Below the pieces are notes generated by a model, which was not told where the DNA came from, searched no databases, and saw only the letters and a list, made by a program, of their open reading frames with translations. The position numbers were made by a program, and so were the translations under genes. Below are positions 4,670-21,173 of a stretch of 21,173 nt of DNA, piece by piece; the stretch's first letter is position 1, and each line of letters opens with the position of its first letter. Source of the DNA: a virus (taxonomy: Duplodnaviria; Heunggongvirae; Uroviricota; Caudoviricetes); IMG/VR virus record IMGVR_UViG_2660238548_000014, positions 1-21,173 of that record. One strand, written 5' to 3'.

Positions 4670-4672
4670 TAA

Positions 4673-5389
<717 letters not shown>

Positions 5390-5501
5390 TCGGCAAGGTG
5401 TTCTGGTCGGCGCATAGCTGATAACAATTGAGCAAGAATCTTCATCGAATTAGGGGAATTTTCACTCCCCTCAGAACATAACATAGTAAATGGATTGAAT
5501 T

Positions 5502-6341: not shown

Positions 6342-6356
6342 TTATCAGGAGTAATT

Positions 6357-6791: not shown

Positions 6792-6817
6792 CCCGGCCTC
6801 AGCGCCGGGTTTTCTTT
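6792..6817 (+). terminator. rho-independent terminator after rexB (t-imm-like)
   Basis: CCCGGC-CTCAGC-GCCGGG hairpin followed by TTTTCTTTG, immediately after the rexB stop. Confidence 0.6.
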
Positions 6818-6964
6818 GCCTCACGATCGCCCCCAAAACACATAACCAATTGTATTTATTGAAAAATAAATAGATACAACTCACTAAACATAGCAATTCA
6901 GATCTCTCACCTACCAAACAATGCCCCCCTGCAAAAAATAAATTCATATAAAAAACATACAGAT

Positions 6965-7027
6965 AACCATCTGCGGTGATAAATTATCTCTGGCGGTGTT
7001 GACATAAATACCACTGGCGGTGATACT
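6965..7027 (+). promoter_or_regulatory. OL3-OL2-OL1 operators and pL promoter
   Basis: TATCTCTGGCGGTGTTGACATAAATACCACTGGCGGTGATACTGAGC. OL3 at 6965..6981, OL2 at 6985..7001, OL1 at 7009..7025, -35 TTGACA at 6999..7004, -10 GATACT at 7022..7027. Confidence 0.85.
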
Positions 7028-7066
7028 GAGCGCATCAGCAGGACGCACTGACCACCATGAAGGTGA

Positions 7067-7097
7067 CGCTCTTAAAAATTAAGCCCTGAAGAAGGGC
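7067..7097 (+). promoter_or_regulatory. nutL (boxA 7067..7082, boxB hairpin 7083..7097)
   Basis: CGCTCTTAAAAATTAA followed by GCCCTGAAGAAGGGC, downstream of the pL start. Confidence 0.75.
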
Positions 7098-7255
7098 AGC
7101 ATTCAAAGCAGAAGGCTTTGGGGTGTGTGATACGAAACGAAGCATTGGCCGGAAGTGCGATTCCGGATTAGCTGCCAATGTGCCAATCGCGGGGGGTTTT
7201 CGTTCAGGACTACAACTGCCACACACCACCAAAGCTAACTGACAGGAGAATCCAG

Positions 7256-7579
7256 ATGGATGCACAAACACGCCGCCGCGAACGTCGCGCAGAGAAACAG
7301 GCTCAATGGAAAGCAGCAAATCCCCTGTTGGTTGGGGTAAGCGCAAAACCAGTTAACCGCCCTATTCTCTCGCTGAATCGCAAACCGAAATCACGAGTAG
7401 AAAGCGCACTAAATCCGATAGACCTTACAGTGCTGGCTGAATACCACAAACAGATTGAAAGCAACCTGCAACGTATTGAGCGCAAGAATCAGCGCACATG
7501 GTACAGCAAGCCTGGCGAATGCGGCATAACATGCAGTGGACGCCAGAAAATTAAGGGAAAATCGATTCCTCTTATCTAG
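7256..7579 (+). CDS. N: antitermination protein N
   Basis: ATG at 7256 with an AGGAG RBS at 7244..7248. 107-aa MDAQTRRRERRAEKQAQWKAANPLL... with the arginine-rich boxB-binding N-terminus. The 133-aa track ORF is the historical over-extension. Confidence 0.9.
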   Translation: MDAQTRRRERRAEKQAQWKAANPLLVGVSAKPVNRPILSLNRKPKSRVESALNPIDLTVLAEYHKQIESNLQRIERKNQRTWYSKPGECGITCSGRQKIKGKSIPLI

Positions 7580-8131
7580 TTACTTAGATATTGGCCTTGG
7601 CTTTATCTCAATATTATATGGATCATAGCTGGCAACTAATTCAGTCCAGTAAATATCCTCAATAGGGAATAATATATGCTTCCCATTCCATCGGGAAAAA
7701 GTTTTGTTCAACACACCAAGCTCAATCAACTCACTAATGTATGGGAATTGTTTTGATGTAACCACATACTTCCTGCCTTCATTAAGGGCTGCGCACAAAA
7801 CCATAGATTGCTCTTCTGTAAGGTTTTGAATTACTGATCGCACTTTATCGTTTTGCATCTTAATGCGTTTTCTTAGCTTAAATCGCTTATATCTGGCGCT
7901 GGCAATAGCTGATAATCGATGCACATTAATTGCTAGCGAAAATGCAAGAGCAAAGACGAAAACATGCCACACATGAGGAATACCGATTCTCTCATTAACA
8001 TATTCAGGCCAGTTATCTGGGCTTAAAAGCAGAAGTCCAACCCAGATAACGATCATATACATGGTTCTCTCCAGAGGTTCATTACTGAACACTCGTCCGA
8101 GAATAACGAGTGGATCCATTTCTATACTCAT
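7580..8131 (-). CDS. sieB: superinfection exclusion protein B-like membrane protein
   Basis: ORF abutting the N stop on the opposite strand, as sieB does in lambda. Hydrophobic segments (IVIWVGLLLL, VFVFALAFSLAI). The first ATG is at 8131; the track starts at an upstream TTG. Confidence 0.65.
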   Translation of the reverse strand: MSIEMDPLVILGRVFSNEPLERTMYMIVIWVGLLLLSPDNWPEYVNERIGIPHVWHVFVFALAFSLAINVHRLSAIASARYKRFKLRKRIKMQNDKVRSVIQNLTEEQSMVLCAALNEGRKYVVTSKQFPYISELIELGVLNKTFSRWNGKHILFPIEDIYWTELVASYDPYNIEIKPRPISK

Positions 8132-8368
8132 CAAACTGTAGGGGTTGTAATAGTTTATCCGATTTCTCGCTGTAGGGGTACACGAGAACCACCGAGCCTG
8201 ATGTGGTTAAAAGACAGGCATACTAATAAACACTGCACTGTGTATTCATTCCAACGAGTGAATACACTGAGCAATGTCGCTCGTAACTAAACAGGAGCCG
8301 ACTTGTTCTGATTATTGGAAATCTTCTTTGCCCTCCAGTGTGAGGGCGATTTTTTTGACGGAGGATAT

Positions 8369-9337
8369 ATGAGTGAAGTAACAGATTTAGTTGTTATTGA
8401 AAAAGCAAATGCAATGACTGTATTTCAGTCTGCCGACCAGATTGAAGAAATCCTTCAAAAGGTTGAACGTGAAGTTATGTCCTTTGTGCCTGATATCACA
8501 ACGGCAAAGGGCAGAAAGGAGATCGCTTCTCTGGCGTATAAAGTTGCGCAGACGAAAACATATCTCGATGGTCTTGGCAAAGACCTTGTTGCTGAACTGA
8601 AGGAAATTCCAAAGCTAATTGATGCCAACCGCAAGACAGTGCGCGATCGCCTTGATGAACTGAAAGCCAAGGCACGCCAGCCTCTTACTGATTATGAGGA
8701 AGAACAGGCGCGAATTAAAGCCGAAGAAGAAGCTAAGGCAGCAGCTGAAGCTCTCGCAAAGCAAATTGAGTCTGACCATGAAATAGCGATTTTGATGGAT
8801 CGCGAATTTGACCGCCAAAGAGAAGAGGCAAGACTCAAAGCGGAGCAGGAAAAGCGAGAGCATGAAGAACGCTTAAAAAGAGAAGCTGAAGAGAAAGCCA
8901 GAGCAGAAGCCGAAGCAAAGGCAAAAGCCGAAATTGAAGCAGCAGCAAGGCGAGAAGCAGAAGCTAAGGCCGCAGCGGAACGTGCAGAGCGTGAACGCAT
9001 TGAAGCCGAGCAACGAGCACAGCGCGAAGCAAAAGAGGCAGCAGAACGAGCCGAAAGAGAAAAGCAGGCGGCAATTGAAGCAGAACGTAGAAAAGCACAG
9101 GAGGAGGCTGAACGAATCCGGCGCGAGGCTGAAGCAAAAGAGCAAGCCAGAATAGCAGAAGAAAAAAGAATCAAGGACGAAGAAGAGCGTAGAGCAAAGG
9201 ATAAAGCTCACCGGAAAGAAGTAAATAACAAAATACTTGCTGACCTTATCAAGTTTGGTGCATCAGAAGATGTTGCTAAAAATATCATAACAGCCATCGT
9301 AAAAGGCGAAGTATTCGCAACAAAAATAACCTACTAA
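8369..9337 (+). CDS. hypothetical coiled-coil protein with a long Glu/Ala/Lys/Arg-rich low-complexity region
   Basis: ATG at 8369 with a GGAGGA RBS. 322 aa with about 150 residues of EAKAKAEAEA/ERAERE-type repeats (TolA-like composition). First pL-operon gene after the lambda-like block. Confidence 0.6.
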   Translation: MSEVTDLVVIEKANAMTVFQSADQIEEILQKVEREVMSFVPDITTAKGRKEIASLAYKVAQTKTYLDGLGKDLVAELKEIPKLIDANRKTVRDRLDELKAKARQPLTDYEEEQARIKAEEEAKAAAEALAKQIESDHEIAILMDREFDRQREEARLKAEQEKREHEERLKREAEEKARAEAEAKAKAEIEAAARREAEAKAAAERAERERIEAEQRAQREAKEAAERAEREKQAAIEAERRKAQEEAERIRREAEAKEQARIAEEKRIKDEEERRAKDKAHRKEVNNKILADLIKFGASEDVAKNIITAIVKGEVFATKITY

Positions 9338-9361
9338 TAAAACCAACATAAGGAACCACCC

Positions 9362-9493
9362 ATGATTTACGCAATCGCGGGAGGCGCTCGCATGGGTGCC
9401 TTCCAATTAAATGAATCTTTACTTGAACGAATCACCCGTAAATTACGTGACGGATGGAAAAGAGTTGAGGTCTTATTATGCGCAATGAAATAG
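9362..9493 (+). CDS. small hypothetical protein (43 aa)
   Basis: ATG preceded by AAGGAACC. Below the 60-aa track cut-off; called only from manual translation. Confidence 0.3.
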   Translation: MIYAIAGGARMGAFQLNESLLERITRKLRDGWKRVEVLLCAMK

Positions 9494-9630
9494 CCATTAA
9501 TCACCAGATGCTTCGTGCGGCACAAAACAAAGCAGTAATAGCCAGATTTATTGGTGATTCAAAAATGTGGCTTGAAGCAAATAAAGCAATGAAATCAGCT
9601 ATCAACCTTCCGTGGTATCGCAGGAAATGA
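9478..9630 (+). CDS. small hypothetical protein (50 aa)
   Basis: ATG at 9478. Its stop overlaps the next ATG (ATGA), suggesting translational coupling. Confidence 0.3.
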   Translation: MRNEIAINHQMLRAAQNKAVIARFIGDSKMWLEANKAMKSAINLPWYRRK

Positions 9631-9797
9631 GTTTTACAGATAACTGGTCAGACGAAGAATTCATTCGTCAGATGAAAGATTTAATCGGTAACGAAGGAGA
9701 TATTCATGTCACTTGCAACCACAGTGAAGGAGAGCAAGTTACAGAGACGCATGTACACGCAGCAGGCGTTAATGTATCGCCAGAATGGAGATCGTGA
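9627..9797 (+). CDS. small hypothetical protein (56 aa)
   Basis: ATG at 9627 with an AGGA 3 nt upstream. Sits within a GTG-initiated 61-aa track ORF. Confidence 0.4.
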   Translation: MSFTDNWSDEEFIRQMKDLIGNEGDIHVTCNHSEGEQVTETHVHAAGVNVSPEWRS

Positions 9798-9886
9798 AGG
9801 TGTTCGCGTATTTTTAAATGCGGCAAAGACTGAAGTATTAAATAAGCGTTATTTCCTTGGGCCGTGTCCATTCTGAGAACAAACAT

Positions 9887-10492
9887 ATGAGCAAAGAATT
9901 TTACGCAAAACTGGCAGCTATTCAGGAGAACTTGAATGCGCCAAAGAATCAGTACAACTCATTCGGTAAATATAAATACAGAAGCTGCGAAGACATTCTT
10001 GAAGGCGTTAAGCCGTTACTGAACGGTCTGTTTTTATCAATCAGCGATGAAGTTGTGTTGATTGGTGATCGGTATTACGTGAAAGCCACGGCAACTATTA
10101 CCGATGGCGAAAACAGTCATACGGCAACCGCTCTTGCACGAGAGGAAGAAAGCAAGAAAGGAATGGATTCTGCACAAGTTACGGGAGCCACAAGCTCTTA
10201 TGCACGCAAGTATTGCCTCAATGGTTTGTTCGGCATTGATGATGCGAAAGATGCAGATACCGACGAGCATAAACATCAGCAGAACGCAGCAGCAAAGCAA
10301 TCAAAACCATCACCTACACCTGAACAGGTTCTAAAAGCATTCACTGACGCAGCAATGCAGAAAAACACCGTAGAAGAGCTTAAACAGGCGTTCGCCAAAG
10401 CGTGGAAGATGCTCGAAGGCACACCGGAGCAGCACAAAGCGCAGGACGTTTACAACATCAGACGAGACGAATTAGAAGGAGCGGCTGCTTAA
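9887..10492 (+). CDS. erf: Erf-family single-strand annealing (recombination) protein
   Basis: The motifs FGKYKYRSCEDILEGV and ATSSYARKYCLNGLFGIDD match the conserved ERF-superfamily signatures (P22 Erf-like). ATG at 9887. Confidence 0.75.
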   Translation: MSKEFYAKLAAIQENLNAPKNQYNSFGKYKYRSCEDILEGVKPLLNGLFLSISDEVVLIGDRYYVKATATITDGENSHTATALAREEESKKGMDSAQVTGATSSYARKYCLNGLFGIDDAKDADTDEHKHQQNAAAKQSKPSPTPEQVLKAFTDAAMQKNTVEELKQAFAKAWKMLEGTPEQHKAQDVYNIRRDELEGAAA

Positions 10493-10875
10493 TGGCACAT
10501 TCGATTACAGTAAGACTAAACAAACCCGCAAGAGAGTTTCAGGCCGGGGAAAATATCGGATTCAACATCCGTGCTGGCGTTCAGTATTACGATCGCCAGA
10601 CAAAAAAGAAAGAATGGACAAACTACAGCGCCGTTGTATTTGCCAAGCCGGGAGCGCAAGCGGATTACTACCGTAGTGTTCTTGTTGAAGGTAGCATTGT
10701 AGAAATTACCGGAGAAAACATCAGGGTTGATGTTTATCAGGGGCAAAATGGTCAATCAATCACTCTTGAATTACTGAATGCAAAGATTGGATTTGCAGCT
10801 TCAGGAAATGGCCCGCAGCAGCAAAGTAGTAACCATCAGAACACTCCTGTTTACGACGATTCCATCCCATTCTGA
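10492..10875 (+). CDS. phage single-stranded DNA-binding protein (SSB-like, acidic C-terminal tail)
   Basis: ATG overlaps the erf stop (TAATG). The 127-aa product ends in DDSIPF, resembling the DDDIPF tail of SSB proteins. Position next to erf fits a recombination module. Confidence 0.65.
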   Translation: MAHSITVRLNKPAREFQAGENIGFNIRAGVQYYDRQTKKKEWTNYSAVVFAKPGAQADYYRSVLVEGSIVEITGENIRVDVYQGQNGQSITLELLNAKIGFAASGNGPQQQSSNHQNTPVYDDSIPF

Positions 10876-10898
10876 TTTAGAACAATAAGGATTTAATT

Positions 10899-11192
10899 AT
10901 GCCAGCGCCTCTGTATGGTGCGGACGACGTGCGCCGCTGTTCCGGCAATTCCGTATCGGAGGTGCTGGATAAATTCAGAAAAAACTACGCCCGGATAATG
11001 TCGCTACCGCAGGAAACGAAAGAGGAAAAGGAATTTCGCCACTGTATATGGCTTGCAGAGAAAGAAGAGCGCGAGCGAATTTACCAGACATCAATCCGAC
11101 CATTCCGCAAAGCCACATATACCCACTTCCCTGAAATTGACCCGCGCCTGCGTAATTACCGCTCACGCTATGGCGCTATCAGTAATGACTGA
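10899..11192 (+). CDS. hypothetical protein
   Basis: 97-aa ORF with an AAGGA RBS 8 nt upstream. No recognised motif. Confidence 0.55.
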
Positions 11193-11202
11193 GGAATTTA
11201 CC

Positions 11203-11370
11203 ATGAGAGGACTTGCATACAATCCCGGCATTCTTCCGGCAGAAATGATTATTCGCCAACGCGTAAAGCCAATGCCATCGAGAGAGGAATTGCTTAAGAG
11301 AAACTCTTTTCCATCAGTGAATCAAAACAAATATCTGAATGCGATGTGGCGTAAAGGAGGCAAGCAGTGA
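11203..11370 (+). CDS. small hypothetical protein (55 aa)
   Basis: ATG at 11203 with a GAGGA RBS. Its stop overlaps the GTG start of the next gene. Confidence 0.45.
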
Positions 11371-12314
11371 GCGAAATTAATTATCAGGCACTGCGTGAAA
11401 AGGCAGAGAAAGCAACTAAAGGAAGCTACATCGTAGGGCATACATCTGTTAACCAGCACGGCAATTTAACAGGAGTTTTTGTTTGTCAAAAATGGAAAGG
11501 AGAACCCGGTGGCGTGATTGCAGAATGTCATGTTAACTGCCTGGTTGAAACAGATGCTCAGGCTTACGCAAACGCTGAATTTATTGCTGCCTTTAATCCA
11601 AATGTTGCGCTGGCGCTTCTGGATGAACGGGAAAGAAACCAGCAATACATCAAACGCCGCGACCAGGAGAACGAGGATATTGCGCTTACGGTAGGGAAGC
11701 TGCGCGTTGAGCTTGAAGCAGTAAAATCAAAACTCAACGAGCAGCGTGAATATTACGAGGGAGTAATCGCGGATGGAAGTAAGCGCATAGCAGAACTGGA
11801 AAAACAATGCGCCGAATGGGAGCGAAAAGCATTAAGCAACTTTGAAGAGTGTGCTGCGATGGCTGAACGTATCGAAGAGATGCAGACAAAATCTGCACCA
11901 GATTCGTTTGGCATCATCGGTGAAAATATTCGAACACAGGACAATCGAATAACGTCAGATCCCATGTTTTGTGTGTATCAAAAGCGCGAAATTGTTGTTG
12001 ATGCTGATTATGACCATGACCGGATTGTCTGGGTTGACGAAGATGGCAATGAAGCCAATAAACGCCATAGTCGTCGTCTCGAGCTACTTCATGAAAACTT
12101 TCGAGAGCCACCAGAAAAATGGCGGCGCGTTGCTGTGAAAGATATTGATGAATTCGTTACCTGCTGTTTCACCGAACAGGGTTGTAAAGACTACCTGGCA
12201 GTCAATGGTCACAATCTTCGCTTGCCATTTATATATGTAAAAAGCGGTTTCAGGAACGCTGAATATATCGGCATAAGAAACTGGCTTGCTGGCATTCGCA
12301 TCAAAGGAGAGTGA
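11367..12314 (+). CDS. Ead/Ea22-like protein
   Basis: GTG start preceded by a strong AAGGAGG RBS. The N-terminus [19 protein letters not shown] resembles the conserved start of Ead/Ea22-family prophage proteins, with a coiled-coil middle. Confidence 0.6.
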
Positions 12315-12315
12315 T

Positions 12316-12831
12316 ATGGCGTTAACACACCGCGAACTCTGTCAGATTGCGTACAAGTTCCTTAAGCGCAACGGGTTCAAGGTTTGTTTTCATGACCGCT
12401 TTATAGCTGTAACCAGTACCGGAGAACAGCCAGATGCTATGGGATTCAGAAATTCAGCATCATGCCTGATAGAGGCGAAATGTTCTCGTGCTGACTTGTT
12501 GGCAGATAGAAAAAAGCGTTTTCGTAAAAATCCGTCTCTTGGAATGGGCGACTGGCGATTCTTTATTAGTGAGCCGGGAATTATTTCAATTGAGGATTTA
12601 CCACCTGGCTGGGGATTACTTCACGTTGTTAACGGAAGAGTACGGAAAGTACATGGGTGGCCCAAGGGTAATTGCTGTTGGGGTAATCCTGACGATAAGC
12701 CATTTACTGGAAATAAGCAGGTTGAATGCGATTACATGTTGTCTGCATTAAGGCGCATGGAGTTGAGAGGGCACCTTAATGAAATATATGACGGTGTAAT
12801 TGTTAATAAGAAAGAAGGAAACGCGGCATGA
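12316..12831 (+). CDS. hypothetical protein with a putative PD-(D/E)xK nuclease motif
   Basis: ATG at 12316 with an AAGGAGAG RBS. Contains EQPD...CLIEAKC, a D...ExK arrangement typical of the PD-(D/E)xK fold. Called from the motif only. Confidence 0.5.
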   Translation: MALTHRELCQIAYKFLKRNGFKVCFHDRFIAVTSTGEQPDAMGFRNSASCLIEAKCSRADLLADRKKRFRKNPSLGMGDWRFFISEPGIISIEDLPPGWGLLHVVNGRVRKVHGWPKGNCCWGNPDDKPFTGNKQVECDYMLSALRRMELRGHLNEIYDGVIVNKKEGNAA

Positions 12832-13184
12832 CCACTATTACCGACAAAGAACTGATTAAAGAAATCAAAGAGCGCATAGGCAGCTTGGACGTTCGAGACA
12901 ATATTGAGCGCCGTGCTTATGAAATTGCACTGGCATCGCTGGAAGCAGAACCGATAGCGTGGGAATGCGGTGAAAACATAATCCTGTTTAACCCTGACAC
13001 AGTTGAAGCATACGCAAAACGTGCGGAAATATCACCTAAACCACTATTCTCCGCGCCGCCAGCGCTGGTAGTGCCTGATAAGTTGCCGCGTGAATACAGA
13101 AACGGTTGGCCTCTTGCGTATAGTGATTATGCTGAAGGCTGGAACGACTGCCGCGAAGCCATGCTTCAGGGAGATAAATCATGA
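12828..13184 (+). CDS. hypothetical protein
   Basis: 118-aa ORF with ATGA overlap to the upstream gene and an AAGGAA RBS. Confidence 0.55.
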   Translation: MTTITDKELIKEIKERIGSLDVRDNIERRAYEIALASLEAEPIAWECGENIILFNPDTVEAYAKRAEISPKPLFSAPPALVVPDKLPREYRNGWPLAYSDYAEGWNDCREAMLQGDKS

Positions 13185-13546
13185 TTAATCGTATCAAGCT
13201 GGAGCACATCCTCGAATATGCCAGGCAGCAGAGGCATATTGGTCAGCATTGTAAAATTCCACCAGTAGATATGGTTGAAATCATGGAGATTGCCATGCGC
13301 AAGGCTGGCAACTCTCCGGTAACTCCGGATGGTTGGATAAGCTGTAGTGAGCGAATGCCGGAAAAGAATCAGAGCGTGCTTATTTCGGTGAATTTCGATA
13401 GCTCTCTGGTTGAGCCGCTAATATGCTCTGCACGCTATACCGGAAGTACATTCCGGCGTGGAGATGTAACGATTAAGCCGGGCAATGGTGTTGAGCAGGT
13501 AACACACTGGATGCAGCTACCAGAACCGCCGCAGGAGGTGAAATGA
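13181..13546 (+). CDS. DUF551-like prophage protein
   Basis: The motifs WISCSERMPE and HWMQLPEPP resemble the DUF551 signature common in enterobacterial prophages. ATGA overlap upstream. Confidence 0.55.
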   Translation: MINRIKLEHILEYARQQRHIGQHCKIPPVDMVEIMEIAMRKAGNSPVTPDGWISCSERMPEKNQSVLISVNFDSSLVEPLICSARYTGSTFRRGDVTIKPGNGVEQVTHWMQLPEPPQEVK

Positions 13547-13629
13547 TGAATTGGCCTGAAGCATTCACCGCAGTAGGAGTTGCAATAGCGGTGGCATTTA
13601 TTCTGTATTCGCTTTTCCGCTGGGGATAA
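13543..13629 (+). CDS. small hydrophobic peptide (28 aa, single predicted TM helix)
   Basis: ATGATG preceded by AGGAGGTG. Product MMNWPEAFTAVGVAIAVAFILYSLFRWG. Below the track cut-off. Confidence 0.35.
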   Translation: MMNWPEAFTAVGVAIAVAFILYSLFRWG

Positions 13630-13633
13630 AGGA

Positions 13634-13876
13634 ATGTTCGCTCTGATTCAACGTGGTCAGATATACACGGACAGAGCCGGATACCCTGTGGTGATTACTC
13701 GCAGTACTCAGCACTCAGTATTCTTTCGGCGCATGGACGGACGCTCCGGGCGGGTACACATTGGTGAGTTCAACAGCCTGTTCGAACATATTGACCGCCA
13801 GGAGTACCGCAAAATTCTGGCGGGCACTGAGCAGGAAATGCACCTGAAAAAATTACGCGCAATGCAACGGAGGTGA
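13634..13876 (+). CDS. hypothetical protein
   Basis: 80-aa ORF with an AAAGGA RBS. Confidence 0.5.
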   Translation: MFALIQRGQIYTDRAGYPVVITRSTQHSVFFRRMDGRSGRVHIGEFNSLFEHIDRQEYRKILAGTEQEMHLKKLRAMQRR

Positions 13877-13879
13877 TAC

Positions 13880-14014
13880 ATGCATACGGCTTTTGAGTTC
13901 TGGGTTCGCAAGACATTCGGCAATCGCTACGACCTGCCCCGTGATGTTGACGGCTTCTACTGCCGTGAAGTTGTGAAACGAATGTTTGACGTGTGGTGCC
14001 ACTGCCGTGGATGA
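13880..14014 (+). CDS. small Cys-rich hypothetical protein (44 aa)
   Basis: ATG preceded by GGAGGTG. Product contains FYCRE...WCHCRG. Below the track cut-off. Confidence 0.35.
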   Translation: MHTAFEFWVRKTFGNRYDLPRDVDGFYCREVVKRMFDVWCHCRG

Positions 14015-14032
14015 ACGTTTTATGAGGTAACT

Positions 14033-14248
14033 ATGGCTCTCAACATTGATTGCGTACCTATAACGACATGGTGTCGAGATATGGGAGAAACGCTGGATGC
14101 CGTTAACAAACGGTTACAACGTGGAGTATGGAAGGAAGGGGTTCAGGTTTTAAATGTGGAAGGCTCCAAAGAACGATGGATTGATTTAACTGAGGTTTCA
14201 AAATGGGCGAGAAAAAACAAATATCCTTATCACTCCCAAGAGGAATAA
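14033..14248 (+). CDS. xis: excisionase-like protein
   Basis: 71-aa basic protein immediately upstream of, and overlapping, the integrase gene, with a GAGGT RBS. The position is canonical for xis; no family assignment was possible. Confidence 0.5.
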   Translation: MALNIDCVPITTWCRDMGETLDAVNKRLQRGVWKEGVQVLNVEGSKERWIDLTEVSKWARKNKYPYHSQEE

Positions 14249-15375
14249 CAATTCGTCAATACAAGAATTGCTCTACATTAGTTGTAACCTTCACATATAA
14301 AGGGGTTCTTTGCAGAGAACCCTTACCCAGGCTGGAAGCTAACGCAAAGGGGATTAAGTATGCTGAACGGCTTCTAGGAGAAATAAAAAACCAAATCAGT
14401 GATGATTCATTCGATTTTTCAAAATACTTTCCAAACTCTAGGAAGCTGGCATTATTTGGAATGGTAAAGAAAAATAAAAGTGTGAGAGATTACCTAGATG
14501 AGTATCTGGAAATTTGCAAAAACAGAAAGTTATCACCTTCAACAATAAATGGATATGAAAAATGCGTATCTGCATTATCTGAACTACATAAGCTACATGT
14601 TGTTGACCTGACACCAGCAATATTAAAAAAATGGATCTCAAAAAGAACAACAAAACTTAAGACCATAAGAAACAATCTATCATTTTTAAGAAGTGCAGTA
14701 GATGAAGCGGTCACTGACGGACTTATAACGATAAATCCTGTAAAACTGGTTAGTGCAAGTAGATACCATGCGGTTAACCATACAGCCAATACTGATGATT
14801 ATGAAGTGGATCCATTCACACCAGCAGAGGCAACAGCTATCTACAACGCCTGTCTTTATCAGGAATGGAGAAATCTTTTTTGTTTCGCATTCAATACAGG
14901 CCTACGAAGCTCAGAATTATGTGCATTGCGTTGGTCTGATATTGATTTTATTGGGCATACCGTTCACGTACAGGTCGCTTCTGTCGTTGGTGTGATAAAA
15001 GGAACCAAAACAAAAGCTGGTACCAGAAAAGTTGAATTAAACAATGAAGCTATAATGGCATTACAGGCCCAGAAATCATTTACGATGATGAGAAGTGATT
15101 TTGTATTCAGTGATCCAAAAACACGCAAGCCGTGGGCTAATTCAGCTGCGATTCGTAAGAAAGCCTGGCTCCCGACTCTTAAAAAGGCCGGAGTTCGTTA
15201 CCGCAATCCATATCAGACTAGACATACATTCGCTACACGGCATATCAGCCAGGGGGCAAATTTATTCTGGCTTGCCGGTCAAATGGGACACAAAGGACCA
15301 GAAATGCTGTTTAGACACTATGGTTCATATTTATCAGAATATGATGGCAAGACTGCGATCTCAGAAGTAATCTAG
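14203..15375 (+). CDS. int: tyrosine-type site-specific integrase (prophage int)
   Basis: 390-aa ORF with the tyrosine-recombinase C-terminal catalytic region (..RHTFATRHISQGANLFWLAGQMGHKGPEMLFRHYGSY..). It overlaps xis and is followed by the att core. Confidence 0.85.
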   Translation: MGEKKQISLSLPRGITIRQYKNCSTLVVTFTYKGVLCREPLPRLEANAKGIKYAERLLGEIKNQISDDSFDFSKYFPNSRKLALFGMVKKNKSVRDYLDEYLEICKNRKLSPSTINGYEKCVSALSELHKLHVVDLTPAILKKWISKRTTKLKTIRNNLSFLRSAVDEAVTDGLITINPVKLVSASRYHAVNHTANTDDYEVDPFTPAEATAIYNACLYQEWRNLFCFAFNTGLRSSELCALRWSDIDFIGHTVHVQVASVVGVIKGTKTKAGTRKVELNNEAIMALQAQKSFTMMRSDFVFSDPKTRKPWANSAAIRKKAWLPTLKKAGVRYRNPYQTRHTFATRHISQGANLFWLAGQMGHKGPEMLFRHYGSYLSEYDGKTAISEVI

Positions 15376-15509
15376 CCGCTTAAATATTTCAAAATATGTA
15401 CTAAGGTAGGACAGAGAATAGACTCCAACTTACACCTGAAATACATAAAAACATCTAGAAATAATATGAAATCTTTTGTTTTTCATATCGTTATGTAACT
15501 TGGGTGTTT

Positions 15510-15535
15510 GGGTTCAACTCCCGCCAGCTCCACCA
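15510..15535 (+). other. attachment-site core: 26-nt copy of the 3' end of ssrA (tmRNA), not an intact gene
   Basis: GGGTTCAACTCCCGCCAGCTCCACCA matches the 3'-terminal T-arm and acceptor sequence of E. coli tmRNA as I recall it. Sequence immediately upstream does not match ssrA. Confidence 0.75.
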
Positions 15536-15571
15536 CTTTTTAGTTGTTTGAAGTTCAATGAAGTCTACTAA

Positions 15572-15603
15572 GCCCACACAGCACAAGCTCTGCGGGCTTT
15601 TTT
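15572..15603 (+). terminator. putative rho-independent terminator downstream of the ssrA fragment
   Basis: Imperfect GC-rich hairpin (GCCCACA...CTCTGCGGGC) followed by TTTTTT. Confidence 0.4.
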
Positions 15604-15700
15604 ACGTCTATTGTCGTCCAGTGAGAATTGCTGAGAACTACGAGTTATGGCACCCTGAATGGGACCCACTAAGAAGGGTCCAAAAACCGAGGGTCCCAAA

Positions 15701-16930
15701 ATGGCAAAAATCGCTAAGAAGCTCACTGACACTGAAATCAAAAGCACCAAGCCAGCCGATAAAGAAATCAACTTGTTTGACGGTGATGGTCTGATTCTAC
15801 GAATCGCTCCTTTGGCGAAAGGAGGCAAGAAAAATTGGTATTTCAGGTATGCAGTACCAGTGAGCAAGAAAAGAACCAAAATGAGCCTTGGGACATATCC
15901 TCACCTTACCCTTGCAAGAGCCAGAGCCTTACGTGATGAATATCTCTCCTTTCTGGCAAATGGTGTTGATCCCCAAATCCATAACAACGATAAGGCGAAG
16001 GCATTAAAGAGTGCTACTGAGCACACTCTCCAAGCCGTAGCGCGGAAATGGTTAGATGAGAAGGTAAAGACATCAGGTATCTCACAAGACCATGCAGCAG
16101 ACATCTGGCGCAGCTTAGAGAGAAATGTCTTTCCCGGTCTGGGTAATGTCCCTATCAATGAGATCCGACCTAAGCTCTTAAAACAACACCTTGATCCTAT
16201 TGAGCAACGAGGCGTATTGGAAACTCTACGCCGTATCATTTCACGTCTGAATGAAATCTTCCGGTGGGCAGCTACTGAAGAACTTATTGAGTTCAACCCG
16301 GCTGACAACCTTGGTCAAAGATTCAGTAAACCAAAAAAGCAAAATATGCCTGCCCTTCCCCCAAGCGAATTGCCAAGGTTTATGGAATCTTTGACGAATG
16401 CGTCAATCCGGTTGGAAACACGTATGCTAATTGAATGGCAATTGTTGACATGGGTTCGTCCGGGTGAAGCCGTTCGCGCAAGGTGGTCTGATATTGATAC
16501 AACCAACAGCATTTGGAACATTCCTGCTGATTTCATGAAAATGAAAAAGCTTCACAAAGTTCCTTTGAGTAAAGAAGCTTTGCGCATCCTTGAATTAATG
16601 AAATCAATAAGTGGGCATAGAGAATGGGTTTTCCCCAGCATAAAAGCGCCTCTTAATCATATGCATGAACAAACAGCCAACGCAGCTATCATCCGAATGG
16701 GGTTCGGAGGCGAGCTTGTAGCTCACGGTATGCGTTCTATTGCACGAACAGCGGCAGAGGAGTCTGGTAAATTCAGAGCTGAAGTTCTTGAGGCAGCGCT
16801 TGCCCACTCGAAAAAAGATGAAATTATCGCAGCATACAATCGTGCAGAATATCTGATAGAGCGACAGAGTTTGATGCAATGGTGGAGTGATTACGTTCAA
16901 GCTCAAAGATCAAATGCTCTGGTAGCCTAA
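15701..16930 (+). CDS. intA: P4/CP4-57-type tyrosine integrase
   Basis: The N-terminus MAKIAKKLTDTEIKSTKP...DGDGLILRIAP..WYFRY resembles the arm-binding domain of IntA-type integrases, and the C-terminus has VAHGMRSIARTA and ALAHS. It lies just downstream of the ssrA 3' end, as intA does in K-12. ATG at 15659 is an alternative start. Confidence 0.85.
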   Translation: MAKIAKKLTDTEIKSTKPADKEINLFDGDGLILRIAPLAKGGKKNWYFRYAVPVSKKRTKMSLGTYPHLTLARARALRDEYLSFLANGVDPQIHNNDKAKALKSATEHTLQAVARKWLDEKVKTSGISQDHAADIWRSLERNVFPGLGNVPINEIRPKLLKQHLDPIEQRGVLETLRRIISRLNEIFRWAATEELIEFNPADNLGQRFSKPKKQNMPALPPSELPRFMESLTNASIRLETRMLIEWQLLTWVRPGEAVRARWSDIDTTNSIWNIPADFMKMKKLHKVPLSKEALRILELMKSISGHREWVFPSIKAPLNHMHEQTANAAIIRMGFGGELVAHGMRSIARTAAEESGKFRAEVLEAALAHSKKDEIIAAYNRAEYLIERQSLMQWWSDYVQAQRSNALVA

Positions 16931-16968
16931 GTATCAGAATAGCTAATATAATCCTGAAGGTAAAGAAA

Positions 16969-17385
16969 ATGGAAACCCTATTCAAAGTTTTTGAAAAATT
17001 TAGTTCCAGACCACTTTTTTTTATTTTTTTCGGACTCTCACTTTGTGAATTTTTTCAGAAACAATCTGTTCTGATGAATCCATCAGCAGATAACATCGCG
17101 AAATTATTCGCAGCCATGATATTAGTTGTTTTTTTTACTTGGGGATTTGAATGGCTAATCTTCAAGTTCAATGTAAACCTTGAACCTCATGATCAAGGCG
17201 ATATTGGACCAACAATTGGAACGGCTACTTTAGCTGTATACTTAGTTTATGCCTTTCACTTTCTCAGTGAAAATCCTGAAGCATTAAATTTAAAGTTATT
17301 AACTAACTCTGGCTTTATATACAGCACAACTCTATTATTATTCTCATTAGAATGCATGAAGCTTAGAAGACTTAAACAAAAATAA
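16969..17385 (+). CDS. hypothetical small membrane protein
   Basis: 138-aa ORF with a GAAGG RBS, several hydrophobic helices, AT-rich codon usage. Convergent with the two-gene module. Confidence 0.55.
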   Translation: METLFKVFEKFSSRPLFFIFFGLSLCEFFQKQSVLMNPSADNIAKLFAAMILVVFFTWGFEWLIFKFNVNLEPHDQGDIGPTIGTATLAVYLVYAFHFLSENPEALNLKLLTNSGFIYSTTLLLFSLECMKLRRLKQK

Positions 17386-17456
17386 ACAACATCATTGTGA
17401 TGATAAATATAAAATAGGCATGGCGAAAAAAAATCACCACGCCTAAAATATAATAA

Positions 17457-19205
17457 TTATGGTAGCATCATTGATACATAATCCACACCAATCCTTGAGC
17501 TATACTGAGACGCTATAGCCTGATATCTTTCTGCATAACCAGTTCTCAGTTGAGATTTAAGTTTGAGTCGGACAGGAACATTTTGCACGTTGCCATCCAT
17601 ATTACTTAAAAACACGGCAGAAATAATATTTTTTTCTTCGCCATCAACTGTTGTTCCATGATTCAACACCACCATATAATCAACAACAGGAAGCGTTTTA
17701 TCCCCTTCGAAAATAGAGAGATATTTTCTTTGATTTTTATGCATTACATATATATATTTCGAATATTCAGCAAATGGCAATGCTTTACTCTGACTGGCGT
17801 TAAAAAGCTCCAGAACTTTAATGAGCCTGTGCGGACTTAATCTTACATGGTGAGGGTCGTTACCCTGAGTAGGAACCAAATCACATGCCGCAGATACACA
17901 TAAATACCATTTGTTCGACTCTGTATCAAAGAAAATAGTGCCAGTAGAAATATGACCATCTTCAAAATTCTTTGAAGACAAATTCATATTTAAAGCATGA
18001 TACATTTCGTGATAAGTATCATTATTTGATGGCAGATCCATTTTTGAAGAGCAATATTGGAGCAATGCAGCAACTCCGCTGTTAGCGTATTCATTTGAAT
18101 AGCTATCAAAAACACTTTTGATAAATTCATCCAGCGTATTATTATTTTTAAGTCTTTGATAAAGCTCTTCTGATAAATTACCAAATACAAAGTCAATATT
18201 TCTACATCTAATATCAGGCGAGTCTGATTTTAATATCTCATTTAACCACGCAGCTTGACCGTAATGATCGTTAGCCAAATGATTTACAAAAGATAAAGCC
18301 TCAGCTTCGATTGCATTCTGAATTTCAGATTTTATTAACTGATAATAAGATGGTTTCCATTCAATGAGAGAATCATTGAGAGTTTGCCAAATCCTATCTC
18401 CATCGTTTTCATGATCATCTTGAACCTTATGAAATAGGGAGACAAAGATATTACCACATTGAATCCATTTTACTCCGCTTTCATCACCCCGAATGACATT
18501 GCCAGATGTGTTGCTAGAAATAATTGCATTTCTAGACACAGCATATTCTGCAATCATTTTTGCAATGAAGTTTTTATCCTTTTGATCCTCCAACACAGCA
18601 TCATCATGTATTAATCTTTTAATTCTTCTACAAGGCTTACTGTCTTTAATATAGGCTATTGTTTCATCTCTTGTGAGAGCTTTATTACCATTATCATTTA
18701 AGTTCGGTAATACAACGTCTTCCCAATAACTTTGGACATCTTCATTATCGTAGTCAATGATCAAGCTGTTGATATCCAGAGCACCTTTGAGAGTCGATGA
18801 TATCTGCATCCAAACCGTTTCTAAATTCTCTCTAGTATATATTACAATCATATTTAAATGATCGGAGTCTTTCAAATCTTGTAATAGTTTAAGTGTTTTA
18901 TCAGGTGCATTATTATCAAGATGATAATCTACAATAATAAGATCTGATTTTCTAATCCGATCCACATCGAAATTAACAGAACCATTGTCAACATCACAAA
19001 TCATATTTTTAGATTGAAAAAAGCTCTCAAGAGTAGCGGCTCGTTTAGATGAGTCAATTTTGTTGTAGTCTAAATCAACTTCGTTATTCAACGCCCTGAT
19101 TGATTCAGAATACGTCAGAAAATCGTCATCAATCATGACAACGGAACGAATTGCATTTTCGCAGAAAGTTTTCTGGACAAGAGAATTATAATTTGCCACT
19201 GTCAT
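17457..19205 (-). CDS. receiver (REC)-like domain protein with ~430-aa C-terminal domain of unknown function
   Basis: The likely start is the ATG at 19205 (GGAG 7 nt upstream), 1 nt after the upstream stop. The N-terminus has receiver-like elements: SVVMIDDD, DLIIVDYHL (candidate phospho-acceptor Asp) and NMIVIYT. The remainder has no motif I recognise. Confidence 0.65.
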   Translation of the reverse strand: MTVANYNSLVQKTFCENAIRSVVMIDDDFLTYSESIRALNNEVDLDYNKIDSSKRAATLESFFQSKNMICDVDNGSVNFDVDRIRKSDLIIVDYHLDNNAPDKTLKLLQDLKDSDHLNMIVIYTRENLETVWMQISSTLKGALDINSLIIDYDNEDVQSYWEDVVLPNLNDNGNKALTRDETIAYIKDSKPCRRIKRLIHDDAVLEDQKDKNFIAKMIAEYAVSRNAIISSNTSGNVIRGDESGVKWIQCGNIFVSLFHKVQDDHENDGDRIWQTLNDSLIEWKPSYYQLIKSEIQNAIEAEALSFVNHLANDHYGQAAWLNEILKSDSPDIRCRNIDFVFGNLSEELYQRLKNNNTLDEFIKSVFDSYSNEYANSGVAALLQYCSSKMDLPSNNDTYHEMYHALNMNLSSKNFEDGHISTGTIFFDTESNKWYLCVSAACDLVPTQGNDPHHVRLSPHRLIKVLELFNASQSKALPFAEYSKYIYVMHKNQRKYLSIFEGDKTLPVVDYMVVLNHGTTVDGEEKNIISAVFLSNMDGNVQNVPVRLKLKSQLRTGYAERYQAIASQYSSRIGVDYVSMMLP

Positions 19206-19206
19206 A

Positions 19207-20925
19207 TTAGAACTCCACTCCATTGAACTGGATCACAAAATTAGCGCCATCTTTTATTAAATAGTTATCGCCTTCATCAGGTTCTAAATACCATATTTTA
19301 TGATGTGCAACAGCAAGGTTTTCTCGACATAGATACAGACCTACCCCATGTCCATTTGCTCTTTTGCTATAAAATAGTTCAAATAGTCGCGGGATATCAT
19401 CGGTATCAATTGCCGGACCAGAATTTGCTATGATAACCAAAGAATTCACAAAACCAATCTTTATGAGCCTATTATTTGACAGACTGACCCAATACATTGC
19501 ATTGTTGATAATATTAGTAAAAACAGGATAGATCCTTGATGGTATATCTGTTATTGCGATTTGCTTAAACTCTTCACTAAATTCAATAGTTATTCGTTGC
19601 CGTTCGAAACGCTCCCCAAAGAACTTCAGGACATAATCCATGATATTTTTTCCAGTTATTCTCTGCCTGGATTGATAACCTGATATTTTCAAAGGTGATA
19701 AGAAACGTATTTGTTGAGTAAGCGATCTGTGAGCATTTAACGCCAATGAAAAACCAGGGTGTTCTTTTACAGAAGTAGGAAGAGAGTTTAGTCCTCTGGT
19801 TACCATAGAATCCATTTCTTCAAGTTCATGAGATATTATCTCAACACTAATACCTAACTGTGCAAGCGCGTTTAAACTTTTAGCTTTTTCTTCAAAATAT
19901 GAGCGTTCTTCTTCAGATAATGAGAATGCTGAATCTAAGTTTATACCTTCAAATAATCTATCGAGACCTTTTATTATTGATTGATATTTGAAAGTTAGGG
20001 TATCAACTGACTCAACATATAAACTATCGAGCAAATTAAACACATTTTCAATTTGTGAATCATTATCTATTGAATCAACAACTGATATAGTTTTAGCATA
20101 ATAATCACTTCGATCAACCTTTATTTCATCGGCCCATTTTTTTAAAAGAGAATGTATCTTCTCCTCTATCGTGTTATTAAACTTAGTTAGTTTAGAATTA
20201 ATAATACCTTGATTTTTTTCAAGGTGATTTTTCGCTGACAATGAAGGCTCAAGTTTATTTAATTCAGAATCAAGTTTATTAATTGCTAACTTCATTTGTA
20301 GAATATACGCAGAGAACTCATTAAATTTATCTCTGTAGTCTCTATATTTCTCTTCATACATTCCAAGTTTTGGAGGTTTGATAGGCGTTTTAATTTCACT
20401 GCGCAACGCATCTAAGTTTGTAAGATCACTGTCTATAATTTTAAGATAGTTTAAATCTAACGAACCATCAGTTTTATCAAGCTTAGTTTTCAGCCTTTTA
20501 ACAGCCTCCAAGGAAGCATCAAGAACTGGTGTCTGATTCTTCAAAGCTTCTGAAAAACTTTTTTGTGTTGATTTTCGAGCTTGTTGTTGAGCAGATTTTC
20601 TTAACTCTTTTTCACGCTTAACTTGTTCTAAAAGCTCTTTACGGTCATCAGAACGTGAACCAAAAAATCTATCAGCAAGTTCAGTTAACAAATTAGATAT
20701 AATAGTTTTCAGTTCTCTTGCAGCCTGGTTTCTTATGAATCCCTCTCTCCCCGACTTATCTTTCAGCTCTTTATTACTGGATTGAGTAATTCCAATATAA
20801 CCAAAAATCCTTCTATTAGACCAATAATATCGCCCTGCATTCCATGAACGTCTTTCTTCTATCTGGAAGAAATCATTATCTACTCGACCATAAGGTAATA
20901 CTCTCAAGCTATCCCTAAAAATCAT
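19207..20925 (-). CDS. cytoplasmic histidine-kinase-like ATPase; 5' end probably truncated by IS3
   Basis: H-box-like EIISHELEE (His codon at 19828..19830), N-box RIYPVFTNIINNAMYW, G1/F-box IIANSGPAID...LFELFYS and G2-box GHGVGLYLCREN, in canonical order and spacing. No transmembrane segment. The frame stays open upstream of the first ATG as far as 21046, with no start codon. Confidence 0.7.
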   Translation of the reverse strand: MIFRDSLRVLPYGRVDNDFFQIEERRSWNAGRYYWSNRRIFGYIGITQSSNKELKDKSGREGFIRNQAARELKTIISNLLTELADRFFGSRSDDRKELLEQVKREKELRKSAQQQARKSTQKSFSEALKNQTPVLDASLEAVKRLKTKLDKTDGSLDLNYLKIIDSDLTNLDALRSEIKTPIKPPKLGMYEEKYRDYRDKFNEFSAYILQMKLAINKLDSELNKLEPSLSAKNHLEKNQGIINSKLTKFNNTIEEKIHSLLKKWADEIKVDRSDYYAKTISVVDSIDNDSQIENVFNLLDSLYVESVDTLTFKYQSIIKGLDRLFEGINLDSAFSLSEEERSYFEEKAKSLNALAQLGISVEIISHELEEMDSMVTRGLNSLPTSVKEHPGFSLALNAHRSLTQQIRFLSPLKISGYQSRQRITGKNIMDYVLKFFGERFERQRITIEFSEEFKQIAITDIPSRIYPVFTNIINNAMYWVSLSNNRLIKIGFVNSLVIIANSGPAIDTDDIPRLFELFYSKRANGHGVGLYLCRENLAVAHHKIWYLEPDEGDNYLIKDGANFVIQFNGVEF

Positions 20926-21046
20926 TAGTCCTGCATACTTTTTGGCCTTAAGATCAAAGTGGGAATGTTCACGTTCAGTATGTGATGTATTTTGTGAAAG
21001 GAATTCAAACGTTCCTATCTGAAGCTCAAATGGGCCGACCCCTGCG

Positions 21047-21173
21047 TGATCCTACCCACGTAATATGGACACAGGCCTAAGCGAGGTTCTTGTTTTCAAA
21101 TTGTTCCGGACTGAGGCCGCCACACCAACTGTGCCGCCGCCACCGATTGTAATCACATTCGATATAATTAAAC
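21047..21173 (-). mobile_element. IS3 element, right end (terminal inverted repeat plus 3' end of transposase orfB); continues beyond the window
   Basis: Plus strand from 21047 reads TGATCCTACCCACGTAATATGGACACAGGCCTAAGCGAGG..., matching the IS3 terminal repeat as recalled. The minus-strand translation ends ...[31 protein letters not shown]-stop. Confidence 0.75.
21077..21173 (-). CDS. IS3 transposase OrfB (InsF-like), C-terminal fragment
   Basis: The minus-strand frame gives ...[31 protein letters not shown] with its stop at 21079..21077. The N-terminal part is outside the window. Confidence 0.7.

Follow-up and report, generated by a model that had tools for sequence, protein, structure and literature searches.

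An IS3-truncated histidine kinase gene and its receiver partner on an ssrA island as a probable remnant of a three-gene methylase-kinase-receiver module

The window analysed here is a stretch of 21,173 nucleotides, positions 1 to 21,173 of the IMG/VR virus record IMGVR_UViG_2660238548_000014 (Caudoviricetes). When the window was aligned by blastn with an intact island of the same kind (locus L002), the two were 98.99% identical, but the match was confined to 15510-21047. In the window, this island part (15510-21046) contained an integrase gene, an ORF of 138 aa, a receiver gene and a kinase remnant only, and no methylase, HNH or XRE-type domain was found in it. The features of the locus are as follows.

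15511..15536, plus strand: att repeat, a 26-nt copy of the ssrA 3' end (GGGTTCAACTCCCGCCAGCTCCACCA), at the left edge of the P4-integrase island
15659..16930, plus strand: P4-type tyrosine integrase of the island, with Arm-DNA-bind_3, Phage_int_M and Phage_integrase domains
16969..17385, plus strand: 138-aa hydrophobic protein that travels with the island, outside the kinase-receiver operon
17415..17445, minus strand: terminator-like hairpin and T-run just past the receiver gene stop codon (consensus match only)
17457..19205, minus strand: receiver-domain protein, 582 aa, intact; ATG at 19205, with an earlier ATG at 19223 in the ORF list
17460..18422, minus strand: family-specific C-terminal module of the receiver protein (residues 262-582), in which a beta-rich subdomain comes after a helical bundle
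18681..19151, minus strand: Response_reg_2 receiver domain (PF19192, above its cut-off), residues 19-175
19207..21046, minus strand: 5'-truncated kinase gene, equivalent to residues 377-988 of a 988-aa MORC-like histidine kinase by comparison with the relative P0036
19270..19542, minus strand: HATPase_c catalytic ATP-binding domain (PF02518) with N, G1, F and G2 boxes
19684..19860, minus strand: HEF_HK dimerisation and phosphotransfer helices (PF19191) with the SHELEE His-Glu pair
21047..21173, minus strand: right end of IS3, the truncation point (annotated as an IS3-like transposase in locus L001)

Direct reading and alignment matched the 26-nt repeat to the 3' end of the tmRNA gene in L002, where the integrase adjoins tmRNA and smpB. 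Neither ARAGORN nor Rfam found a full tmRNA/ssrA gene in the window, and only the last 26 nt are present. The initial annotation was right to place the pair on an ssrA island next to a P4-type integrase. Its remark on base composition was also borne out (GC of 0.342 in 17457-21046 vs 0.456 in 1-15509). The kinase-receiver pair is carried on a horizontally acquired island. The 138-aa protein occupied the same position in loci L002, L009 and L005; it reached a Kyte-Doolittle maximum of 2.06 and matched phrog_6556, a PHROG of unknown function, with no family in Pfam, PADLOC or NCBIfam. The terminator-like hairpin has a 12-pair stem including 6 GC pairs.

The first usable start of the kinase gene is the ATG at 20925 (Met417), which gives a minus-strand ORF of 572 aa (19207..20925), the product annotated in RefSeq as 'ATP-binding protein'. 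Its stop codon (TAA, 19207-19209) is separated by one base from the receiver ATG at 19205, and the identical 1-nt spacing was seen in relatives. No 19-residue hydrophobic window above 1.6 was found in either protein, in agreement with the original description of the kinase-like product as soluble; its gene and that of the receiver-domain protein are translationally coupled. Profile searches placed three domains (HEF_HK, HATPase_c and Response_reg_2) above their cut-offs. HEF_HK scored 26.1 bits (cut-off 24.1) at kinase residues 356-414, which contain SHELEE, and HATPase_c scored 42.5 bits (cut-off 26.4; E 9.8e-11) at residues 462-552; both regions aligned to 3a0r, the structure of a sensor kinase from Thermotoga. 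In full-length numbering, the SHELEE His-Glu pair is H785/E786 (H785 being H369 of the 572-aa ORF); it was invariant across 14 full-length relatives, as were N890/N893/N894, G922, D929, F934/F937 and G944xGxG948. The N, F and G2 boxes were accordingly invariant, whereas in the G1 box this held for Gly922 alone, and the G1 box of the window reads NSGP where the canonical box begins with Asp. These results bear out the kinase core that had been seen in the letters.

The receiver protein is intact and differs from its copy in the intact island at 2 of 582 residues. Its Response_reg_2 domain has the acidic pocket (D26/D27), the predicted phospho-acceptor D93 and T124 that had been noticed from the letters, and these phosphorelay residues are conserved. 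Homologues of 570-640 aa had the same architecture. For the C-terminal part, in which the first reading recognised no motif, no Pfam family was found in residues 262-582 even at E 10, and no NCBIfam family was found for the protein. A profile of the module gave one chance match to PDB sequences (E 0.33), and the structural search that had been proposed, Foldseek against the PDB, returned nothing at E <= 0.001. Its conserved residues include H403, N406, C436, C441, D442, Q552, R554, Y557, R571 and D575. Lack of conservation at K463 led us to reject a PD-(D/E)xK interpretation of D442...K463. Shuffling of the module among other proteins was likewise rejected, since a query of 1.84 billion representatives with this module by itself yielded only the receiver-plus-module architecture or fragments of it. 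Comparison of the C-terminal subdomain with the MazF/CcdB/Kid toxin fold gave weak scores at 7-12% identity, with no sequence signal, and is at most a lead. Two invariant cysteines lie in this subdomain.

The upstream gene is incomplete and is interrupted at 21047. Homology to the 988-aa protein P0036 begins at residue 377, there is no in-frame start before Met417, and the blastn match to L002 ends at the same point. Beyond it, junction query bases 148-274 (window 21047-21173) matched IS3 copies in thousands of genomes, and the exact IS3-kinase junction was common to 484 complete genomes. The kinase reading frame stays open back to a stop at 21052-21054, inside the IS3 end. Comparison with the intact island shows that an IS3-associated deletion took the methylase, the rest of the island and kinase residues 1-376, including the whole MORC-like ATPase. 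It left an intact receiver gene and a piece of the kinase gene that has neither its native start nor a promoter of its own. The 572-aa length is an artefact of gene disruption. The N-terminal ~360 residues of the remnant, previously regarded as unassignable, are the central linker of a longer protein that has lost its N-terminal GHKL ATPase. Proteins of 572 aa in other genera had suggested a natural short isoform; this was rejected, and the one such entry checked (Klebsiella, L005) proved to come from a 994-aa gene with one frameshift.

The transposase gene of IS3 is oriented toward the kinase remnant and ends at about 21077. IS3 is reported to promote the expression of flanking genes, and with the transposase gene in this orientation both the receiver protein and the 572-aa fragment may be produced. 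No consensus-like promoter was found between the IS3 end and the ATG at 20925. An AGGA lies a few bases 5' of this ATG.

Relatives 99% identical to the kinase are 988 aa long and carry an N-terminal MORC-like GHKL ATPase (PF13589); intact loci with an allele 99% identical to the remnant are represented by Klebsiella, Serratia or Salmonella. Full-length kinases of 988-997 aa (99-62% identity) combined PF13589 with PF02518 and, in part, PF19191, and the GHKL Bergerat motifs (E35/N39, D64xGxG and GxKGIG) were invariant in full-length relatives. By its domain content, the ~988-aa kinase is a fusion of an N-terminal MORC-like GHKL ATPase to a C-terminal HEF_HK and HATPase_c core. In L002, a cytosine methylase gene (MTase; PF00145, E 7e-59), the kinase gene and the receiver gene run in one direction with overlapping or 1-nt junctions. 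The three genes were also adjacent in all 13 other, distant loci that had enough flanking sequence for the count, from Enterobacterales to Acidobacteriota. The proposed check on conservation of the gene pair found it beside the methylase in each of these loci. By gene order, the conserved unit is one of three genes (C5-MTase, MORC-like kinase of ~980 aa and receiver protein) and not of two. Nuclease genes stand beside the triad in some relatives (HNH_2 in L014; AspBHI_N plus Mrr_cat in L016), and Vsr adjoins some triads; in most loci a separate nuclease is missing, and the triad alone is conserved. The triad is absent from PADLOC-DB v2, and the intact 988-aa kinase matched no defence family in PADLOC and no specific family in NCBIfam. 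PHROGs offered for the pair only families of unknown function, built from these same sequences.

The pair had been put forward as a possibly distinct or undescribed variant of a signalling system. The family was in fact described in 2021, when both Pfam models, PF19191 and PF19192, were built for it (Bellieny-Rabelo, Pretorius & Moleleki 2021, PMC8011034). That study, which included E. coli members, linked the family to C5 methylases, Vsr, HNH_2 and paraMORC ATPases/R-M systems; the HEF_HK and Response_reg_2 genes were linked in 91.6%, and most members had an N-terminal HATPase_c_3 domain (PMC8011034). It contained no analysis of the receiver C-terminal module and no functional test (PMC8011034), and we found no phage-protection or other experiments on the family in the literature. 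The window pair shares with the published one both Pfam domains above cut-off, adjacent genes, a soluble kinase, the conserved His-Glu of the kinase and the conserved Asp/Asp/Asp/Thr of the receiver, and its intact relatives also share the N-terminal HATPase_c_3 domain and the neighbouring C5 methylase. Unlike a typical member, the window copy is cut by IS3 and lacks both the HATPase_c_3 domain and the methylase. By these domain matches, the pair is assigned to the already published HEF_HK / Response_reg_2 family and is present as a degraded remnant.

Intact relatives resemble the paraMORC GHKL ATPases of restriction-modification operons (Iyer, Abhiman & Aravind 2008, PMC2292703) in having an N-terminal GHKL ATPase with Bergerat motifs next to a cytosine methylase, but they differ from those systems in that no helicase or recognised nuclease is fused to the family or fixed beside it. 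The 2008 text mentions no receiver domain and names histidine kinase only in spelling out GHKL (PMC2292703). In the window, the paraMORC part is wholly absent, having been deleted. The nearest validated system, with a different gene set, is Ambrosia, an experimentally anti-phage cluster in which a DNA methylase is encoded along with a HATPase histidine kinase and a receiver protein (bioRxiv 10.1101/2025.09.30.679545). Its five genes encode an XRE regulator, an N6-adenine methylase, the kinase, the receiver and a type IV HNH nuclease; the receiver is said to contain a winged helix and to act at the level of transcription, infection induces the genes, and defence requires the receiver aspartate and is lost in a D60A mutant (bioRxiv 10.1101/2025.09.30.679545). 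Intact relatives of the window pair likewise bring a DNA methylase, a HATPase-type kinase and a receiver protein together, whereas, going by the description of Ambrosia, they differ in their C5 methylase, their three conserved genes and their output module. The island part of the window lacks the five-gene set of Ambrosia, and the methylase of the parent island is C5, not N6.

Detocs consists of the kinase DtcA, the Hpt protein DtcB and the receiver-PNP protein DtcC, and we know of no methylase association for it. The logic of a soluble kinase signalling to a receiver-domain protein that carries an effector is common to both, but the present family is methylase-associated and has no Hpt protein and no PNP domain. 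No Hpt gene was found as a third operon ORF in the window or in intact relatives, and the Detocs models in the PADLOC-DB scan gave no match, so the Pfam and PADLOC scans upheld the initial view that the pair is not Detocs. The suggested PADLOC check produced no match at E <= 0.001, with only weak, unrelated hits to PD-T4-6 (E 0.026) and C3a59 (E 0.0028). A paper on WASA in Vibrio mentions paraMORC only for a Shedu variant. In DefensePredictor, the HATPase/REC abbreviations come from a figure showing eight predicted but unvalidated systems, and they tell nothing about this family.

Among 5,426 complete E. coli genomes, 560 carried the remnant and none carried the methylase and the 5' part of the kinase gene (of this allele). 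Both remnant ORFs were intact in 548 of the 560 carrier genomes at the site tested. In some strains a second IS interrupts the receiver gene, and in another strain the IS3 and 60 more bases are deleted. Relative to the intact island, the kinase remnant had 6 non-synonymous and 4 synonymous changes, whereas the receiver gene had 2 and 12, respectively (Fisher p 0.03). Both remaining ORFs are intact, and the pN/pS of the receiver gene against the intact-island copy was 0.04, which does not point to decay of that gene. E. coli copies were 99.9-100% identical and hence too alike for measuring selection within E. coli, so that their conservation reflects recency and is not proof of selection.

These data bear on several explanations. 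It is highly improbable that the present two genes amount by themselves to a complete kinase-to-receiver defence system of a novel type. Their tight coupling, the kinase and receiver domains with key residues in place, and the AT-rich DNA of an integrase island had made this attractive, and, as PADLOC gave no match, such a module would be unlisted. However, the IS3-cut kinase lacks 376 residues held by all full-length relatives, the methylase that stands beside the pair in every one of the countable loci is gone, the family has been on record since 2021, and some strains have suffered further IS damage; the truncation largely refutes this reading. The RefSeq names 'ATP-binding protein' (572 aa) and 'response regulator receiver domain' suggest a neat two-gene module in the same way, and what they label is really the stump of a larger system. 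That the pair is orthologous to some ordinary housekeeping two-component system was named at the outset as a possible refutation of a defence role and has a negligible probability. In NCBIfam, the ATP-binding domain weakly resembles sensor kinases such as AtoS and PhoR (best score 35.4 bits, where the cut-off is 646), but scores of about 35 bits or less stand against cut-offs of 240-1550, the pair occurs in only the 560 carrier genomes, it is island-borne and AT-rich, and its receiver protein has no NCBIfam family. This reading is already refuted.

Two further explanations grant the pair, or its family, a different activity. It is quite unlikely that the remnant has changed its function, such that a sensor-less fragment transcribed from IS3 would keep the receiver constitutively or conditionally phosphorylated for a methylase-independent role, e.g. 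in abortive infection or regulation. The intact ORFs in most carriers, the low pN/pS of the receiver gene, the transposase gene reading into the remnant and the AGGA before the ATG are consistent with this idea, whereas near-identity across strains speaks of recency, no consensus-like promoter precedes the ATG, independent IS and deletion damage is tolerated, and the kinase fragment is relatively richer in amino-acid changes. The bolder form of the idea, in which the IS3-transcribed Met417-988 fragment phosphorylates the receiver and a module of new, possibly MazF/CcdB-like fold serves to arrest growth or stop phage independently of the methylase, being kept for this by about a tenth of E. coli genomes, seems to us very doubtful. 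At the level of the family, the pair might be a transcriptional switch and not an enzyme-activating relay, the receiver C-terminal part binding DNA and, once infection occurs, turning on the methylase and nuclease genes beside it, in the manner suggested for Ambrosia; we regard this as unlikely. The winged-helix receiver, infection-induced genes and D60A phenotype of Ambrosia, and the modification-dependent-type nucleases beside the triad in L014 and L016, point in this direction, but most loci conserve the triad alone, Vsr beside some of them is in keeping with constitutive activity of the methylase on host DNA, and the comparison with Ambrosia is one of described gene content. If it held, nothing would remain in the window for the receiver to regulate.

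On balance, the region is probably what remains of the downstream end of a three-gene module (C5-MTase, ~988-aa kinase and receiver) that a P4-integrase island carried at ssrA. From their domains and gene neighbours, a way in which intact relatives might work can be suggested: the methylase would mark host DNA, the MORC-like ATPase would read DNA status and control autophosphorylation at His785, and phosphotransfer to Asp93 of the receiver would switch on the C-terminal module as output. The whole would amount to a restriction-modification-like defence acting through a His-Asp relay, and the HEF_HK / Response_reg_2 family is plausibly a conflict or defence system. The initial proposal of a signalling-based defence module may thus hold for the family, but the window copy has lost the methylase and kinase residues 1-376. 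With neither self-mark nor sensor left, the pair is most likely a non-functional relic and is unlikely to work as a sensing module; as the broken tail end of a known three-gene module, it is probably inactive and not a new defence system. Against this reading stand the two intact ORFs, the possible expression from IS3 and the ability that a DHp+CA fragment may in principle retain to autophosphorylate. It may persist because the deletion was recent and an un-triggered receiver protein would be harmless.

For the window itself, the significance of these results is mainly one of correction. The parent triad, which is kept together from Enterobacterales to Acidobacteriota and whose receiver carries an output module found only in the HEF_HK / Response_reg_2 family, is of more interest than the window copy. 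If it is indeed a restriction-like system that signals via a His-Asp relay, phosphorelay immunity would in this case be tied to epigenetic self-marking.

The two genes of the pair lie on the minus strand in a region (17457-21046) with a GC content of 0.342, compared with 0.456 across the window's prophage portion. The ORF listing, the Pfam domains and the comparisons below gave the following features.

1-15400: lambdoid prophage, with a separate integrase of its own at 14203-15375
15511-15536: att repeat, the 3'-terminal 26 nt of E. coli ssrA
15659-16930: P4-type integrase (assigned from Pfam domains)
16969-17385, plus strand: 138-aa hydrophobic ORF, convergent with the receiver gene
17457..19205, minus strand: receiver-protein ORF, 582 aa
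19207..20925, minus strand: kinase-like ORF, 572 aa
21047-21173: right end of IS3

The kinase ORF ends in TAA and is followed, after one base, by the ATG of the receiver gene. The single-nucleotide separation and the AT-richness described in the initial annotation are both confirmed. A Pfam search matched the kinase ORF to HEF_HK (PF19191) over the SHELEE segment (26.1 bits, cut-off 24.1) and to HATPase_c (42.5 bits), and the receiver ORF to Response_reg_2 (PF19192; 109 bits, E 3.7e-31). In an alignment of 50 homologues, receiver residues D26, D27, D93 and T124 were invariant, and hydropathy analysis detected no hydrophobic segment in the kinase ORF or the receiver protein. The kinase and receiver domains described from the sequence are therefore real, as is the lack of a membrane-spanning segment in the kinase.

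The kinase gene is cut by IS3, which the initial annotation had missed. The frame 5' of the ATG at 20925 was open only back to a stop at 21052-21054, and no in-frame ATG, GTG or TTG occurred from the IS3 end to Met417 (numbering of the 988-aa protein). The segment 21047-21173 is annotated as IS3 in an identical E. coli locus, and IS3 copies matching it were present in thousands of genomes. Proteins of 988 aa from Klebsiella, Serratia and Salmonella were 99% identical to the 572-aa ORF and had an additional N-terminal HATPase_c_3 domain (PF13589). The alignment of the window kinase with these relatives started at their residue 377, and the DNA match to an intact ssrA island (L002; 98.99% identity) ran from 15510 to 21047 and ended there. 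Since homology begins at residue 377 beside IS3 and the relatives are 988 aa long, the N-terminal ~360 residues that had seemed unassignable are the middle linker from a longer protein that has lost its MORC-like ATPase. Entries of 572 aa occur in several further genera, and therefore independent disruptions or sequencing errors have probably led to calls of the same internal Met. In the single example checked, Klebsiella pneumoniae CP141543.1 (L005 6734-9719), the gene was also broken; one frameshift near residue 309 splits a 994-aa kinase gene into pieces annotated as 314-aa and 572-aa proteins.

The remnant (the 5'-cut kinase gene with the receiver gene) was present in 560 of 5,426 complete E. 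coli genomes, and the methylase and kinase 5' part of the window allele in none of the 5,426. The kinase-IS3 junction was identical in 484 of the 560 carriers, indicating one ancestral truncation event. Past IS3, a truncated ygaQ is followed by glaH-gabDTP; the deletion thus also took the rest of the island. Some strains show additional damage. In a number of STEC strains the receiver gene is interrupted by a second element of the IS3 family (12/560 at that site; e.g., L006 3947-5255), and in E. coli 2013C-3342 (L024, about 28430-28500) IS3 and 60 further kinase-remnant bases have been lost, so that the stump abuts ygaQ'. Compared with L002, the receiver gene showed 12 synonymous and 2 non-synonymous differences, and the kinase remnant 4 and 6, respectively (Fisher p 0.03 between the genes, on small numbers). 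The E. coli copies of the remnant were mutually 99.9-100% identical, and their persistence therefore tells little about selection.

Two database records touch on this distribution. Contig DYWT01000267.1, binned as Sporosarcina psychrophila, was 99.9% identical to window 15510-20139 (4,630 bases) and almost certainly represents E. coli DNA wrongly binned into a Firmicute MAG. The assembly NZ_CM135829.1, labelled E. coli DH5alpha, has the island's receiver gene; this gene would not be expected in a K-12 derivative, so the label looks doubtful.

The P4-type integrase reported beside the pair was confirmed. The assignment to an ssrA island held through the 26-nt ssrA 3' end that forms the att repeat; no tmRNA gene was found anywhere in the window. 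The lambdoid prophage is located between the window start and the att repeat, and its insertion separates ssrA from the older P4-integrase island. It encodes replication O/P, cII, a LexA-family (cI-type) repressor, sieB, an erf recombinase and the integrase. It is probably an Stx1 phage, because the near-identical strain 2013C-3342 has stx1a just upstream of the part matching the window start. The 138-aa ORF accompanies the island in Enterobacterales (L002, L009 and L005), and matched no family besides one PHROG of unknown function.

In L002, the order is smpB, tmRNA, P4-type integrase, 138-aa ORF, receiver protein (582 aa), kinase (988 aa) and a C5 cytosine methyltransferase (C5 methylase; PF00145, E 7e-59) that overlaps the kinase start, followed by a relaxase and more recombinases. 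A locus scan with the receiver-protein alignment as query, taking one genome per species, returned 17 loci. The C5 methylase, a 971-1005-aa kinase and the receiver protein were adjacent in all 13 loci with enough flanking DNA, from Enterobacterales, Acinetobacter, Aeromonas, Shewanella, Alphaproteobacteria, a deltaproteobacterium and an acidobacterium. The pair is thus conserved elsewhere, as part of a three-gene unit rather than a unit of just two. The remaining neighbours differed between loci, and in some included nucleases: HNH_2 (L014 11254-12078), AspBHI_N with Mrr_cat (L016 9987-11294) and Vsr (L019 9809-10252). In the alignment of full-length kinases, motifs were kept in both ATP-binding modules: E35/N39, D64xGxG68 and G107-K-G-I-G112 in the N-terminal ATPase, and H785-E786 with the N, F and G2 boxes in the kinase core, where the G1 box was invariant at G922 only. 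In enterobacterial islands the methylase is immediately preceded by a conserved ORF of ~207 aa (L002 8098-8721, L009 28-654, L005 4830-5456); this ORF had no Pfam or PADLOC match and could be a fourth component of the enterobacterial subfamily.

Receiver-protein residues 262-582 were conserved over their full length across the family, including H403, N406, C436, C441, D442, Q552, R554, Y557, R571 and D575. Modelled separately (pLDDT 84.8, pTM 0.83), this output module is predicted to consist of a helical bundle and a beta-rich subdomain, in that order. It matched no Pfam family even at E 10, a profile search of PDB sequences returned nothing meaningful, and Foldseek gave no PDB match at E <= 0.001. 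Searched alone against 1.84 billion representatives, it hit 341 clusters, all either with the same receiver-plus-module architecture or fragmentary.

The suggestion of an undescribed variant did not survive comparison with the literature. HEF_HK and Response_reg_2 were defined from this kinase/receiver family by Bellieny-Rabelo et al. in 2021, with E. coli genomes in the set; the genes were linked in 91.6%, the kinases were soluble, HATPase_c_3 was frequent, C5 methylases, Vsr and HNH_2 were over-represented nearby, and a link was drawn to paraMORC ATPases (PMC8011034), which were described in R-M operons in 2008 (PMC2292703). In Ambrosia, a system from a 2025 preprint, an XRE regulator and an N6 methylase are combined with a HATPase kinase, a winged-helix receiver protein and an HNH nuclease; each of the five genes is required, and the system's genes are induced on infection (bioRxiv 10.1101/2025.09.30.679545). 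Ambrosia is the nearest validated system we found, as compared by description only. PADLOC-DB v2 contained no model for the kinase or receiver protein, full-length forms included, and our literature search found no experiments on the C5-methylase triad. AspBHI-type enzymes are 5mC-dependent, and the presence of such a nuclease beside a C5 methylase is reminiscent of the idea, raised with Ambrosia, that a system may target its own modification.

Beyond the domain content, phosphorelay residues, three-gene conservation and truncation observed directly, we propose that in intact systems the methylase would mark host DNA, which fits Vsr beside some triads (constitutive 5mC). The MORC-like ATPase would read DNA status and gate autophosphorylation at H785, and phosphotransfer to D93 would switch on the C-terminal module. 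In the window, a single deletion would have removed self-mark and sensor together, a loss tolerable for the cell if the system attacks unmarked DNA. The remnant is most likely an inert relic; it is less probable, though conceivable, that IS3 read-through expresses it or that the kinase fragment retains residual activity. Overall, the original observation is confirmed in part and the signalling-defence interpretation supported in part. Because the family had been described before and the window copy is degraded, the locus itself is of little interest, and the object worth testing is the intact triad of other Enterobacterales.
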